64,000 nt of DNA, from NCBI GenBank assembly GCA_963666485.2, contig CAXXUO010000010.1, positions 32,001 through 96,000 of the forward strand, given 5' to 3'. A program made the position numbers. The stretch comes from Syntrophorhabdaceae bacterium. GTDB taxonomy: Bacteria > Desulfobacterota > Syntrophorhabdia > Syntrophorhabdales > Syntrophorhabdaceae. The stretch's first letter is position 1. The number at the start of each line of letters is the position of its first letter. Positions 18,001-24,000 of the stretch are shown here, one piece after another.

Positions 18001-21000
18001 GTCCGTTATCCCCGTCTGCTCCATTATTTGTTTCATGAGAACGGCGGCCATGTGGCGGTGGGGGTATGCGTCGTATTTGTTGAGGACGATGGTCCTGGTC
18101 ATTCCTTCGGTCCCTTTGAGCAGGGCGTCACCGGAGAACATGCGGAGAAATATATCGGGGTATACCAGGCGGGGATCGAGGCCTGTCTGCTCGCGAAAAA
18201 GGTGGCTGCGAAAGACGGCATCATCGAAAGGTTTGAAGAGGGCATCCATGCCAGCGACAATAAACACCCTGTCAGTGTAAGGCATAATAACGGGCTCGTG
18301 GGTCGCCGGGAACTTTAGGGGGCATCCTTTCGCGCCATCCGCCTCGACGAGCACGACGTCGTAGACGGCGCCGAGCGATCGTACCTCGTCGGGGGTGAGG
18401 CCGGTGAGCTTACCGTCCTCAACCGTCTTTCCTATACGGGCGAAGGATGCATCCGGCCCTTTCTTTTTCCAGTCGGCAAATGTGATAAATGGTTCAACTG
18501 CGACGATCTTGGCCGTTGTCGCGATTGCGACTGTTTTCATGCGCGCGAGACAGGATTGTGCCAGGCGCTCCGTGAGGGTCGTCTTTCCGCCGCCGCCGGT
18601 GAAGGCAGCAAATTTAACACCCTCGATCAGGTGATAGGGGTCATTCGTCCTTTGAATATACAACATAAGGAAGGCTTCTGATCCGTTTTATTATATCCAG
18701 GACGCGGTCTTTGTCATTTTCCTGTACAAAAAGGGACGCGTACCCTTTTTGCAGAATGAACAGGCCGTCGTAAGCCGTATCGCGATGTTCCTTGATTGTG
18801 TATGGTATTCCCTCGGTATCGAGAGCATCCTTGATCATGTCCATCTCAAAGATGCTCTCTATGGTGTGCACATTGAGCTGTCTATTTCGTTCCATCCGTG
18901 GGGCCTGGTTTTGGCATAGACCCCTTGTCCGCGGGCCCGACCCAGATTTCAAGCTCGGTCTGGAATGCCCCGCGGGAGATCTTGATATTGCATGTCTTGT
19001 CGTCCTTCATATAATTGAGCACGATATCTTTGTACCTGAAGCTGTTTATATATCTCCAGCCGTTCTTCGACATGTTTATTTTAAAGTAATTCTCGAGCGA
19101 CGCAGGGTCAACGTTCCCGCTGAAGACGACGACGCCGGCTTTAAAACTGGGGGTTTCGTACACGAAGCTGCGCTCGTTGACTATCTCAACTTCTTTCGGG
19201 ACCGGGACATCAGGGAAGCCATAAAACTGCTGATTGAACCCCTGCGCCTTTGACGGCGCCTGGGTGTCGGAGGTTCCCTGTTTCTGAAAAGCCGCACACC
19301 CGACGCATATCAAAGACAATGCAAAGCAGATCACTATCAGTTTCTTCATGTGTTCCCTCCCTTTTTATCTCTTTCAAGGTATGCATACGCACTGTGATTG
19401 TGTATGCTCTCAAAATTTTCCGCCTCGATCGAAAACCAGCGGACATTATTATCCAGAGATAACTTCTCCGCAATGTCCCGTACGACATCTTCGACAAACT
19501 TGGGGTTGTCGAATGCATGCTCGGTTATGTATTTTTCGTCCTCCCTTTTCAGGATCGAATATATGTCGCTGCTGGCGCTCCCTTCGATTATCGAGATGAG
19601 GTCTTCTATCCAGAAGAACCTCTTCGTGTTGACCTCGACCCGGGTGATCCCCCGCTGATTGTGGGCGCCGTGCTCGCTGATCTCCTTCGAACAGGGACAG
19701 AGTGTATTTATGGGAACCGACACAAAGACGATAAACTCCGTCATTGTGTCGTCCGCGTCCAGTGAACCCCGAAAACCGCATTGGTATTCCATGTAGCTCG
19801 GTGTTTTTGAGACCGGCGCTTCTTTTTTGATGAAGTAAGGAAAACTGACCGACATATGCGCCGCTTCGGCATCGAGCCGCACCTTCATTTCCCTCAGGAT
19901 GTCAGGGAAATTTTTCATGTTGATCATGTCCTTGTATTCATGCAGGATCTCCACGAAGCGGCTCATGTGCGTGCCCTTGTAGTGATGCGGCAGGTTGACG
20001 TACATGTCGATCGTTGCAATAGTGTTCTGGTGGCCGTTCGCCCTGTCGAGGACCACGATCGGGTACTTGACATTCTTCACGCCTACCTTGTCGATCTCTA
20101 TCTCGCGGCCGTCGTACATGCTCTGGACGTCCGCCATTTCGGTTTTATCTTTCATACGATGCTGAGGCCCTGTCTGATTCCCATACCGTGACCTTTTTCA
20201 CGGACACCCGGCCGCCGCCTGTACGCTTTTCCAATTCCGAAAAAACGTACATTGCGATATACTCGGCGGAGCTTGCGTGTTCCGAAAAAAAGGGTATGTC
20301 GTTGATGTATTTATGATCGAGAACATCGAGGACCTCATGCAGGTGGCTTTTGAGAACGGTAAAATCTATCAGCATCCCGTCATCCTGGAGCTCATCCCCT
20401 GCAACGCAGACCTCGACGGTAAAATTATGCCCGTGCAATTCCTCGCACTTTCCCTTGTAGCCGACGAGCCGGTGCGCCGCGGCAAATGAGTCCTTAACAC
20501 ACAATGTGAACATGCCATACTGTATCGTTTGGGAGGGGATAAAGTCAAGAAGATGGGTACGGGAACAGGCGATAGGCGATAGGCAATAGGCAATAGGAAA
20601 ATCGTGCCTGCTACCTCATATTGAAGCAACATCTTTCTATCGCCTATCGCCCATAGCCCACTGCCTGTTCCAATAAAAAAGCCCCGCTTAAGCGGGGCCT
20701 GTAATTGTACAAAGTTCTTTATTTCGCCGATTTCTTGATCGCGCGCCTGATGACCACGTATCCCGTTGTGGGACCGGGGATCGCTCCCTCGATGAGGAGG
20801 AGGTTGACGTCGCCGCGAACGTCCACGATCTTGAGGTTCTGGACGGTCACTTTCTTGGCGCCCATATGGCCGGGCATCTTCTTTCCCCGCATGGTGCGGC
20901 CGGGAGTCATGTTCTGCCCTATTGAGCCGCCATGTCTGAAAGCTTCGTGGGAACCATGCGTGGCAGGAGCGCCACCAAATCCGTGACGTTTCATAACGCC

Positions 21001-24000
21001 GGCAAAACCCTTGCCTTTTGAGGTTCCCGTGATGTCCACAAAATCGCCCGGTTCGAAGATGTCGACCGAAAATACCGAACCGACCTCATTTGTCTCGAGG
21101 TCTTCAGGCTCAACCTTAAATTCTTTCAAGATCTTGGTAGGGGTGAGGTCTGCTTTTTTGAAATGCCCGGTCTCAGGTTTGTTTACCCGCTGGACCTTGA
21201 TGACCTCGTCGAAACCGATCTGTACGGCATTATAGCCTTCTTTTTCAGCACTTTTCTTCTGGACAACATAGCAGGGACCAGCCTTTATGACCGTAACAGG
21301 AATGACATTCCCGTGTTCGTCAAATATCTGTGACATACCGAGTTTCTTGCCAATGAGACCTAACGCCATGATAGACACCTCCGAAAAATTGTAACATAAT
21401 AGTCGAAAACTCCCCGAAAGTCAACATGAAATCGGCTGCCCGCCCGCCTCCGGGCAGGATACTTCCCCGTGAGTGAGAAAAGAAAAAACTTAATGGAATA
21501 TCCTTATGTCCGAACACTACTATATATGCCCAGCGCAAGCACTATACCACGGGAGCATTTAATAAGTCGGGCAAGCGAGATCAAGATGATACCGACGCTG
21601 CACACAGTTGCGGACAAGGTGTTCGGTGTTCTCGACAACAGCAATTCATCTTTCAATGATCTCTCGGACGTTGTCAGGTATGACCAGGCCATCACATCGA
21701 AAATAATCAGCATCGCCAATTCCGCATATTACAGCCGGGGCGTTGAGATCTTCAACTTGCAAAGGGCCATGCTCACGATCGGGTTCGAAGAGGTCAGGGG
21801 CATAGTTACCTGCATCCTGCTCATGGAAGGCATCAGGAAATTGCTCAAGCTGAAGGAGGAAGACCTTTTCAGCCTCTGGAAGCACTCGATCGAGGTTGGG
21901 TGCGCGGCCCGCATATTATCGGAACGCCTCATGGTCGAAGACCCGCAGAAGGTTTTCACCGCGTCACTGCTGCATGATATCGGTAGGATAATATTCTATG
22001 CGTTCTCCCCTGAATACAAGGAAATAGAGAACGAGGCAGGCCGGGGTACGGACCTTGCCGCGCTCGAAAGGGAGCGTTTCGGGATAGACCACCAGGAAAC
22101 GGGCCACATCATCGCCGTGAAATGGAAGTTCCCGGCGGATTTTACGAGGGTGGTCGGCAATCACCACAAGGAATCCCCCGATAGCGTTGACGGGCTTCTC
22201 AGGCTGATCACCGCATCGGACCGTTTCTTTACCGGGGCACACAGAGGCAGTTCCACGGAAGGCCTGGTCCTGGACAGGGAACATGACGCCATCATGTTCG
22301 AGGTGCAAAAGATATCGAAGTTCATGCAACTGGATATACCATGAGCTGGAATAGCGCCCGCAGCGAATCGATGAAGGCCGGATGGAACTTCTATCTGAGA
22401 GCGGTCGACAATTATTCCATTATAATGCGCATCATGGAGCATGAGGAAAAAGATCTCCTTATCGGTGAAGCGCCGCGGATCTTCGTTGAAGAATCGTTCT
22501 TCGACATGTGTACGGTCATCGTCAACGATGACGGTGCTGTCAGGCAGGCTTTCTATGCCCTCGATGATACGTTCGGCCCGATCAGCGCCGGTGATATAGC
22601 GAACCTCAAGACATGGAACGGCAGGTCCAATGTTATAGAGGACTATCTCAATTACGGCACGATCTACATTTACACAATACAACGCAGCCTCGCGACGATT
22701 GGGCATATCGTCCTCGGGAAGCGCTGCCGTATCGACCTGACACCTTCGCAGATACGTGAACTCGAGGTGATCGGGGAATTCTACGGCATGGCATTGATGC
22801 GCGGATCAGCTGTTACCCGCAGATCTGATGATACGGTGCACGAGACCGTTCTCGAGTCCTTCCCTGACCCTCTCATACTCGTGGATGCGAACGGGTACAT
22901 CGGTTACGCGAATACAAAAGCAAAAACACATTTTGAGACGAGCAAGGGTTTTTTTCTCAATGAGCGTGCAGACAAGGCTATACCGGGGCTTCCCGAGGCC
23001 CTCGTCAGGGACCGCACGCCGTTCAGCGGGGAAATAAACTACAGATCGGATAACAATTACAGGGTGTACCGGGTTGAAAGCTTTACTGTTCCCGAGGTGA
23101 ATGGGCCCGGGTGGCTCGCTATAGTTTTCAAGGACATAGTTGAGATAAAAGCGGACGAGGAGGAAAAATTCTTAAGGAAAAGGAATGAAAGCGTCGGCAT
23201 GCTTGCGGGCGGCATCGCCCACGATTTCAACAACATGCTCACGGGCATCCTGGGCTATGCGGCCCTGATGAAAAAAATGATCAGCGATGCGCAGCTCGGC
23301 CGTTACGCGGAAGCGATAGAACACTCCGCCCAGCGCGCCTCGGGGTTGACCAGGCATTTGCTGAACTTTTCCCGCCGCCAGAAAAGATCGGCCGGGCTCA
23401 TGGATATCAACTTGCTTCTCGACGACGTCCTTTTCCTCGTGAATAAAAGCTTCCACAGTATCGAGGTGATACGGAATTTTGAAGATGTGCTGCCCGCAGT
23501 CCAGGGTGATGAGGCCGAGCTTCAAAACGTCTTCCTCAACCTTTTTATCAATGCGCGGGATGCAATGGATGGCAAGGGCACCCTTCGGGTGACAACGTCA
23601 CGCTACGACAGAGGGCATATCTGTATCCAGATAGAGGATACGGGGAAGGGCATCGATGACACGCTCCGTCACAAGATATTCGAACCGTATTTTTCCACGA
23701 AGGGAGATACCGCCAATCTTGGCATGGGCCTGTATCTCGTCGACAAGGTCATGAGAGGGCATGGAGGTTTCATCGAAATAAAGAGCGACCCGGGCAAGGG
23801 GGCCTGTTTTGAACTTTACCTGCCTGTTCCTTCCCGGCAGCCTGCTACCGTATCGAAGCCGCAGCTTAAATTAGCCGAAAAGTCCATAGAAAAGAAGACG
23901 ATTCTCGTCGTCGACGATGAGCCCCTCATACGGGAGCTTCTGAAAAACTATCTTGTGTCCCAGGGGGCGCACCTTCTTGAGGCCGAGAATGGCGAGGATG

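Follow-up and report, generated by a model that had tools for sequence, protein, structure and literature searches.

The ribosomal protein L3 gene rplC lies outside the S10 operon throughout the order Syntrophorhabdales

Results

The rplC locus

The gene for ribosomal protein L3 of the Syntrophorhabdaceae genome GCA_963666485.2 is located on contig C10 within the window, the stretch of 64,000 nucleotides analysed here, where it lies between the co-oriented genes queD and folE2 and a divergently transcribed HDIG gene (Table 1). The rplC product covers the full TIGR03625 profile (positions 1–202 of 202) with 279.2 bits against a cut-off of 142.9 and is, as judged from its sequence, an ordinary full-length bacterial uL3. 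Comparison with the PDB likewise returned ordinary uL3 matches, the three alignments displayed being without the H-E-x-x-R-H-type loop described below. The composition of the gene (GC 52.4%, GC3 62%) falls inside the range of the S10-spc-alpha genes. A single tblastn match for L3 was obtained in the whole genome and blastn detected no DNA remnant of rplC elsewhere, in agreement with the earlier note, which had described one rplC outside the S10 operon. As the only intact copy, rplC would be expected to supply the L3 that is incorporated into 50S subunits.

The Shine-Dalgarno sequence ahead of the ATG at 21369 makes this codon a likelier start than the GTG at 21378, and GAGGT-type ribosome-binding sites are also seen in those rplC leaders of the order that were printed. 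A distance of 26 nt separates the end of the −10 box from the start codon, which suggests a leader of about 20 nt. The promoter is of the same type as that of the str operon (TTGACA-18-TAATAT). With its sigma70-type promoter, short leader and terminator, rplC probably forms a self-contained transcription unit in this genome, and both terminator-like and promoter-like sites are present between rplC and queD. Compared with Rfam, the rplC locus and the S10-alpha cluster gave a single tRNA match and nothing else.

Table 1. Genes and predicted signals around rplC (positions in the window)
Feature	Position	Strand	Basis and remarks
rplC (50S ribosomal protein L3, 216 aa)	20719..21369	−	TIGR03625 above cut-off; only copy in the genome
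Shine-Dalgarno sequence of rplC, GGAGGT	21377..21382	−	sequence; 7 nt 5' of ATG
sigma70-type promoter of rplC, TTGACT-17 nt-TATTAT	21396..21424	−	10/12 matches; order-wide conservation
intrinsic-terminator-like hairpin and T run, directly 3' of rplC	20679..20700	−	9 pairs, 7 G-C
queD (6-carboxytetrahydropterin synthase)	20145..20513	−	TIGR03367 above cut-off; neighbour, probably separate transcript
folE2 (GTP cyclohydrolase)	19346..20155	−	NF010200 above cut-off; neighbour
separate sigma70-type promoter before queD	20519..20548	−	also in 34/35 order loci with queD after rplC
HD-type (HDIG) gene, divergent from rplC, followed by a hybrid histidine kinase	21469..22344	+	TIGR00277

The S10 operon lacks rplC across the order

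Normally, rplC sits between rpsJ and rplD in the fixed S10 ribosomal operon. In this genome, a gap of 10 bp separates rpsJ (C1:634763-635068) from rplD (C1:634129-634752), with no rplC in between, as the earlier note had stated. The str-S10-spc-alpha cluster is otherwise continuous on contig C1, and the other queried genes from rpsJ to rplQ are all present in the usual order of the canonical operon. In contrast to the canonical arrangement, rplC has its own promoter on another contig and rpsJ follows tuf after 12 bp; no L4-binding leader is apparent in this gap, where Rfam reports no leader at the gathering threshold.

The direct rpsJ-rplD junction is found in 88 of the 89 order genomes that hold both genes, a count from which a canonical contig in G013 (1.8 kb, low identity) was excluded. 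In the exception, G064, the sole contig concerned is canonical in gene order, has low identity (66/51/41%) and is placed outside the order by the tree. S10, L4 or L23 was not found beside rplC in any of 56 order genomes, and in the single-contig genome G056 the distance between rplC and rpsJ amounts to 820 kb. A second L3 copy beside an operon copy was not seen: each of the second matches opened, in G013, G064, G083 and G085, proved to be foreign-looking, incomplete, interrupted by a frameshift or a repeat of the same L3, with G188, G266 and G347 (contig C69) lying outside the opened set. Thus, the relocation of rplC is real and order-wide, as had been proposed, and a move in the ancestor of the order is the best reading.

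The relocated gene is accompanied by a promoter of the form TTGAC(T/A)-16/18-TA-N3-T at each of 54 order loci, 20–30 nt from the start codon, compared with 0 of 55 control regions upstream of rplB, which bears out the earlier assignment of an own promoter to rplC. A terminator-like element follows rplC in 34 of 53 loci, as counted by our own rule and without a control. In family f3, queD starts within about 35–45 bp of rplC. From this short spacing and the terminator count, some members of the order may read through from rplC.

queD and folE2 are neighbours of rplC

Of 56 order genomes, 38 have co-oriented queD-folE2 next to rplC, and these belong to three of the four families (f1, 34/42, where three misses fall at contig ends; f2, 1/1; f3, 3/3). 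The link is absent from f4 (0/10) and is also missing in G047 and G054–G057. The proposal that rplC moved to the folE2-queD locus across the order thus stands for f1–f3, but not for f4. Other order genomes have an ABC transporter, among others, beside rplC, and the divergent HDIG gene recurs upstream of rplC in part of f1, according to the neighbour table; rlmE had no match in the order's rplC loci. At the sequence level, the genes do not form a stretch free of internal terminators and promoters, such as a shared rplC-queD-folE2 transcript would have. The tie to queD-folE2 that the earlier note implied is not borne out, since queD has its own promoter and the link is absent from f4; queD-folE2 is, on the signals predicted here, a neighbour of rplC and not a partner.

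Displacement of rplC in other lineages

Among Desulfobacterota outside the order, rplC-rplD is kept in 121 of the 127 genomes with both positions listed, and the six that differ all belong to one class of nine genomes; the claim that the move is absent from other Desulfobacterota therefore fails for this class. In Myxococcota, rplC adjoins rplD in none of 139 sampled genomes, and a stand-alone L3 gene is found in 11 of 30 Bdellovibrionota loci, all within one clade. The departure of rplC is thus a recurring rearrangement that is not peculiar to the Syntrophorhabdales, contrary to what had been implied.

A junction scan of GTDB, which assumed an AAG lysine codon and so favours GC-rich genomes, yielded at least 110 true rpsJ-rplD junctions among the 119 loci listed (9/119 were false), of which at least 71 are filed by NCBI under Myxococcota. 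Given this share and the missing rplC-rplD adjacency in that phylum, the approximately 2700 genomes outside the order in which S10 lies near L23 are probably mostly Myxococcota, a judgement made from samples and not from those genomes. We note that the true matches listed also include titles naming Rickettsiales, Enterobacterales, Spirochaetales and Gemmatimonadetes, groups that lie beyond the coverage of the tree placement.

The landing-site neighbours of rplC differ among the four split lineages, although in three of them rplC often lies beside an RNA-methyltransferase gene. A gene of the FtsJ/RlmE family is present in 9/9 genomes of the small Desulfobacterota class, where it is divergent from rplC, and in 6/34 and 4/15 Myxococcota loci, where it is downstream. 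Transfer of an rplC-rlmE block from Myxococcota to the small class is not favoured by the RlmE identities (48–50% to the Desulfobacterota families f63, f54 and f50, compared with 41–43% to two Myxococcota proteins). The H-E-x-x-R-H-type loop of L3 is present in all four split lineages. In Bdellovibrionota (30 loci), the loop reads YFRH in 11/11 stand-alone L3 sequences and in 0/16 canonical ones for which it was printed. The H-E-x-x-R-H-type loop also occurs in operon-borne L3 of f10, f12, f14, f23, f24, f46, f54, f63 and f70.

Phylogenetic placement

A species tree of 25 genes (3786 columns, IQ-TREE) places the order inside a clade with f10, f14, f24 and f46 (SH-aLRT 100), all of which retain rpsJ-rplC-rplD, and the split state requires four changes on the best tree. 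Because the order is nested among families with the canonical gene order, its move was probably independent. AU tests, for which FastTree constraint trees and 5000 replicates (flagged by IQ-TREE as too few) were used, reject a grouping of the order with Myxococcota (p 0.015), of the order with the small class and Myxococcota, and of all four split groups on one side. The same tests retain the order and the class as sisters (p 0.105), the class with Myxococcota (p 0.10) and a ladder in which every split group branches below the remaining Desulfobacterota (p 0.18).

In a tree of L3, built by a quick method, the L3 proteins of the order form one clade (SH-aLRT 97), the main groups of which agree with those in a tree of six S10-operon proteins. 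This clade falls weakly with non-Myxococcales Myxococcota and KSB3 (SH-aLRT 85) and not with the species-tree neighbours. AU tests on L3 alone reject neither vertical descent nor transfer, with or without the 24-residue loop region, whereas monophyly of Myxococcota is rejected (p 0.040) only when the loop is included. The top L3 matches outside the order (f46, f14 and f12) overlap with those of L4 (f14, f25, f24 and f46), and no close plasmid-borne L3, and hence no candidate donor, was present in 64 records (best identity 53%).

Discussion

Taken on its own, we consider it reasonably probable that the order relocated rplC independently, by duplication, gain of a promoter and loss of the operon copy. 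An rplC copy would have been placed elsewhere through segmental duplication or from a close relative, and would then have acquired a strong sigma70 promoter and a terminator, whereupon the operon gene would have been deleted cleanly, such that rplD would be translated directly behind rpsJ. Duplication with subsequent loss of the operon copy has precedent in sections 12 (part 1) and 19 of PMC8046335. A short monocistronic mRNA would encode L3, its leader holding little beyond the ribosome-binding site, and the level of L3 would be set at the str-like promoter rather than through operon-wide feedback or coupling to S10. The queD-folE2 locus would represent the ancestral landing site in three families, with no functional link to L3 implied, and Myxococcota, the small Desulfobacterota class and one Bdellovibrionota clade would each have undergone separate single-gene removals.

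Xenologous replacement, in which a stand-alone rplC arrived with its promoter from a different split lineage (the likeliest donor being a member of Myxococcota outside the Myxococcales), after which the original operon gene disappeared, would account for the repeated removal of the same gene. The position of the order in the L3 tree and the loop common to the split lineages, together with the YFRH loop seen in stand-alone but not in the printed canonical L3 of Bdellovibrionota, point in this direction. However, the loop is shared by operon-borne L3 of the order's closest relatives, the best outside matches of L3 and L4 overlap, the landing sites vary by lineage and the plasmid records compared hold no close L3, and we regard such a replacement as improbable. 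At least as improbable, in our view, is one ancient event, whereby rplC left the operon, or was duplicated beside rlmE, a single time near the root of Myxococcota, Desulfobacterota and part of Bdellovibrionota, with later lineages retaining either copy or returning to the operon order, for which rpmJ offers a precedent in PMC8046335. The ladder topology and the recurrence of FtsJ/RlmE genes beside rplC are consistent with this scenario, but the best tree requires four changes, none of the second matches opened comes from a genome with both an operon and a stand-alone copy of its own, and rlmE is oriented differently in the class and in Myxococcota. Moreover, RlmE of the class is closer to Desulfobacterota than to Myxococcota proteins, and the order's rplC loci contain no rlmE match.

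That rplC moved for co-regulation with queD-folE2, tying queuosine or pterin supply to ribosome synthesis, appears very unlikely: adjacency and shared orientation in three families are offset by the terminator and second promoter between the genes, by the absence of the link from f4 and the five further genomes, and by the other three split lineages, whose rplC loci gave no queD or folE2 match. As metagenome bins make up most of the genomes, an assembly or binning artefact might be suspected; its probability is negligible given repeated, independent assemblies, since the junction is internal to a contig of 1.4 Mb in this genome, recurs in 88 genomes including the single-contig G056, and is recorded in the complete genome NC_015711.

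The order rpsJ-rplC-rplD is among the most conserved in bacteria (the rplC sheet of Table S4 in PMC8046335 contains a single exception), and an order-wide departure from it is therefore a good rare genomic marker for the Syntrophorhabdales. The position of rplC is also a relevant character for the disputed branching among these phyla. Pipelines that expect L3 on the S10-spc scaffold would miss it here, in Myxococcota and in the two other groups. The four-lineage result outweighs that for the single order. It covers the genetically tractable myxobacteria, and the split lineages provide a natural experiment in stoichiometric ribosomal-protein synthesis without co-transcription. The analysis demonstrates neither a new molecule nor a new mechanism. 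Tentatively, and with low confidence, we suggest that L3 is the one gene of the S10 operon to have been removed repeatedly in deltaproteobacterial lineages, on four separate occasions, in every case with an H-E-x-x-R-H-type loop and in three often beside a gene for a (putative 23S) RNA methyltransferase, and that selection would favour a separate supply of L3, which would act as a control point for assembly of the 50S subunit linked to peptidyl-transferase centre maturation.

None of the titles and abstract openings listed for the literature reports that rplC was removed from the operon in Syntrophorhabdales, Myxococcota or Bdellovibrionota, nor is such a removal treated in the portions of PMC4381525, PMC8871954 and PMC2481283 considered; Coenye and Vandamme 2005 may bear on the matter. 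The arrangement resembles the single-gene deletions of Brandis 2021 in that one gene is out, the concatenation is intact and the gene lies elsewhere, but here the deletion characterizes an entire order, and the same gene has gone from the operon in at least three further lineages. For such cases, PMC8046335 describes loss of one gene or gene pair from a cluster that is otherwise intact, the gene or pair persisting elsewhere, via duplication or close-range transfer and then loss. Unlike spare paralogs of the rpmJ2/rpsN2 type, the rplC of the order does not coexist with an operon copy in this genome or among the second matches opened. The uncultured Myxococcota with rplC-rlmE likewise have a single stand-alone rplC, whereas the order has no rlmE beside it. 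The closest parallel in print is the S10 operon of Myxococcus macrosporus HW-1 (NC_015711), given as tufA, rpsJ, '-', rplD in Table S4 of PMC8046335, where HW-1 is the only row of the rplC sheet without rplC, the paper stating 115 genomes. It serves there as an outgroup only, so that the junction is tabulated but undiscussed, and 'rplC' does not occur in the main text. The junction is the same as in the order, but the phylum differs and the event was probably separate. Myxococcus-type rplC leaders are also longer than those of the order, with about 90 nt between the −10 box and the start.

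Relocated rplC gene and its promoter

The single rplC of the genome under study (G000) indeed lies outside the S10 operon, as an earlier note had stated. Neither a second copy (tblastn) nor a DNA remnant of the gene elsewhere (blastn) was found in the whole genome, and on contig C1 the genes run rpsL-rpsG-fusA-tuf-rpsJ-rplD-rplW-rplB and onward to rplQ, rpsJ and rplD being separated by 10 bp from stop to start. Close homologues carry the names Syntrophorhabdaceae or Syntrophorhabdus, and the base composition of rplC is that of the ribosomal cluster. The same genome has three EF-G homologues (C1:636273-638351, C1:1306455-1308449 and C4:193469-195532), the str-operon fusA being only 40–44% identical to the other two, and two tuf copies encoding identical proteins, of which the one on C1 has a GC3 of 0.89, well above its neighbouring genes.

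Features at the rplC locus (window numbering)
Feature	Position	Strand	Basis
rplC, bacterial L3, 216 residues	21369..20719	minus	TIGR03625, 279 bits (cut-off 143)
rplC promoter, TTGACT-17-TATTAT	21424-21396	minus	sequence pattern
Terminator-like hairpin 3′ of rplC	20700-20679	minus	sequence pattern
Second promoter-like site, before queD	20548-20519	minus	sequence pattern
queD and folE2, neighbours of rplC		minus	both above NCBIfam cut-offs
Intergenic inverted repeat	20562-20671		7-nt tandem units
Intergenic inverted repeat	17850-17964		7-nt tandem units

Six promoter-like sites were found at the locus, versus 1.1 expected in shuffles. The predicted rplC promoter, also proposed earlier, recurs throughout the order Syntrophorhabdales, where it ends 20–30 nt before the start codon in 54/54 genomes with enough upstream DNA, compared with 0/55 for the same pattern upstream of rplB as a control; rpsL, too, is preceded by a promoter of this type. 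Given this spacing, we infer a leader with room for hardly more than the ribosome-binding site. In 34 of 53 order loci, rplC is followed by a hairpin carrying a T run, as counted by a rule of our own without shuffle control. The two inverted repeats in the window, whose units differ from each other, have arms of 44–46 nt that are 76–82% complementary and possibly represent a family of small repeated elements.

Distribution within Syntrophorhabdales

Among 96 order genomes from four families (f1–f4), L3 was matched in 91, S10 in 89 and L4 in 90. The S10 and L4 matches directly adjoin in 88 of the 89 genomes with both, 11–17 nt apart including the stop codon, apart from one 40-nt gap where the S10 match is partial. 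The one genome that differs, G064, has a canonical rpsJ-rplC-rplD contig with 66/51/41% identity, which the tree places outside the order; a similar second contig of 1.8 kb in G013 was excluded from the junction count, and we read both as foreign. None of the 56 order genomes with an examined rplC locus has S10, L4 or L23 beside rplC. The relocation of this otherwise ordinary L3 gene is real and clean and extends across the order, in agreement with the earlier note.

The destination given there, the folE2-queD locus, applies to f1–f3 and not to f4: queD or folE2 adjoins rplC in 38/56 genomes (f1 34/42, with three misses at contig ends; f2 1/1; f3 3/3; f4 0/10). In f4 the gene downstream of rplC usually encodes an ABC transporter, and in G054–G056 a radical SAM protein gene lies upstream. 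Thus queD-folE2 is a landing site of rplC rather than a partner. A tie between them fails not only in f4; queD has its own promoter of the same type in 34 of the 35 order loci where it comes after rplC.

In three f4 genomes (G085:C5, G086:C27, G087:C2) and likewise two Myxococcota (G293:C20, G295:C4), rplC shares strand and contig with rpsJ and lies 36–52 kb upstream of it, as short-range segmental duplication would leave it; the distance is 0.8 Mb in G056 and 1.4 Mb in G057. An IS110-family transposase adjoins rplC in two f4 genomes (G080 and G085; loci L146 and L155), and G085 carries two extra frameshifted rplC copies, one sharing upstream sequence.

Split S10 operons in other lineages

The move is not unique to the order. 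Nor is it absent from other Desulfobacterota, as the earlier note had stated of those tested. Of 194 genomes sampled from the latter, 127 had both rplC and rplD positions listed; 121 keep the pair, and the other 6 all come from a single class, represented by 9 genomes. In this class, the rpsJ-rplD junction was seen in five of six genomes inspected (rplD is at a contig start in the sixth), and in 9/9 rplC is divergent from a neighbouring gene of the FtsJ (rlmE) family.

A GTDB genome scan using a pattern that covers the end of S10 together with a motif of L4, which on known loci gave 18 matches, all true junctions, returned at least 119 loci. Among the matches listed, 110 are true rpsJ-rplD junctions, 71 of them placed in Myxococcota by NCBI, some under the mere title 'Deltaproteobacteria bacterium'. 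In Myxococcota (taken as the phylum to which an Anaeromyxobacter-titled genome belongs), adjacent L3 and L4 occur in 0/139 genomes: the two share a contig in 32, at distances of 5 kb to 2.6 Mb, and are on separate contigs in 107. At 30/30 L4 loci examined, the order was rpsJ-rplD. The approximately 2700 genomes outside the order with S10 near L23 are therefore probably mostly Myxococcota. In Bdellovibrionota (the phylum of a Pseudobdellovibrionaceae-titled genome), 30 of 61 L3 loci were fetched, 11 stand-alone and 19 canonical, and the junction was confirmed in 8/9 stand-alone genomes searched; a clade of this phylum is also split.

In two Myxococcota loci, L512 (G347:C330, 3043-5706) and L513 (G352:C61, 6785-9355), rplC is head to head with rpsL, ~1.6 kb from the str operon start and 5 kb from rplD, an arrangement that may be left over from an early stage of the relocation. 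True junctions with 63–69% GC also occur in records titled Rickettsiales, Enterobacterales, Spirochaetales or Gemmatimonadetes (L229, L239, L266, L268, L274, L287, L290, L291, L298 and others); these records are myxobacterial bins under a wrong name, or else they belong to additional lineages.

Single-gene deletions from the ribosomal cluster have been defined previously (PMC8046335), and the relocation in the order is a further instance of this event type. In the rplC sheet of Table S4 of that study, Myxococcus macrosporus HW-1 is the sole row without rplC and reads tufA-rpsJ-(no rplC)-rplD, a junction like that of G000; the main text does not mention rplC. Across the titles and abstract starts listed, and in the open-access literature consulted, we found no description of the move in Syntrophorhabdales or of its wider spread. 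What deserves further attention is the repeated departure of rplC, seen in four lineages.

Origin of the stand-alone rplC

The L3 tree and a tree of six S10-operon proteins (94 genomes, FastTree) agree on the main groups of the order, so rplC has been passed down vertically since the ancestor of the order. In a species tree of 25 genes excluding L3 (61 genomes, 3786 columns, reduced to 34 genomes; IQ-TREE LG+G4), the order falls in a clade (SH-aLRT 100) with the Desulfobacterota families f10, f14, f24 and f46, all of which keep rpsJ-rplC-rplD, and the split state requires four changes. An independent move in the order is the best reading, and we hold it to be reasonably probable. In a 99-sequence L3 tree, the order's sequences group together (97) and join some Myxococcota and KSB3 weakly (85), and AU tests on L3 alone reject neither vertical descent nor transfer. 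Acquisition of rplC by transfer appears unlikely.

We regard a single ancient origin of the split state as about equally unlikely. AU tests on the species alignment (41 of 61 genomes; 5000 replicates, flagged as too few) do not reject a ladder in which every split group branches below the remaining Desulfobacterota (0.18); they reject all four split groups as one side. They likewise reject the order with Myxococcota (p 0.015) and the order with the small class and Myxococcota; order with class (0.105), class with Myxococcota (0.10) and Myxococcota with split Bdellovibrionota (0.22) are not rejected.

For an independent move, we suggest that a second rplC would have arisen elsewhere, either by duplication or by acquisition from a closely related organism (a route as in PMC8046335), and would then have acquired a housekeeping promoter before deletion of the operon copy joined rpsJ to rplD. 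L3 supply would then be set by the promoter of rplC itself, and no longer by the long str-S10-spc-alpha transcript. The E. coli S10 operon and its control by L4 are described in PMC3616713.

Features shared by split lineages

An L3 loop of H-E-x-x-R-H type, or a variant, occurs in all four split lineages. The match is strict in Bdellovibrionota, with 11/11 stand-alone L3 versus 0/16 of the canonical L3 whose loop sequence was listed. Split L3 is not alone in having the loop, which is also present in nine canonical Desulfobacterota families. An rlmE-family gene directly follows rplC in 6/34 loci of a narrow and 4/15 of a wider Myxococcota set (one genome in both), and in 7/8 Bdellovibrionota loci examined the opposite strand downstream of rplC encodes a PF10672 methyltransferase. 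These putative methyltransferases presumably act on 23S rRNA. No rlmE match was found in the rplC loci of the order. With a single-protein query, RlmE matches were obtained in the five order genomes searched and in none of the sampled genomes of the Desulfobacterota families f6, f10–f14 and f22–f27, among them the closest relatives of the order, f10, f14 and f24. In seven split Bdellovibrionota loci (L347, L410, L411, L413, L418, L421, L427), a divergent C25 peptidase gene lies on the other side of rplC, and in two scanned split loci of that phylum an RNA pseudouridine synthase gene follows the PF10672 methyltransferase.
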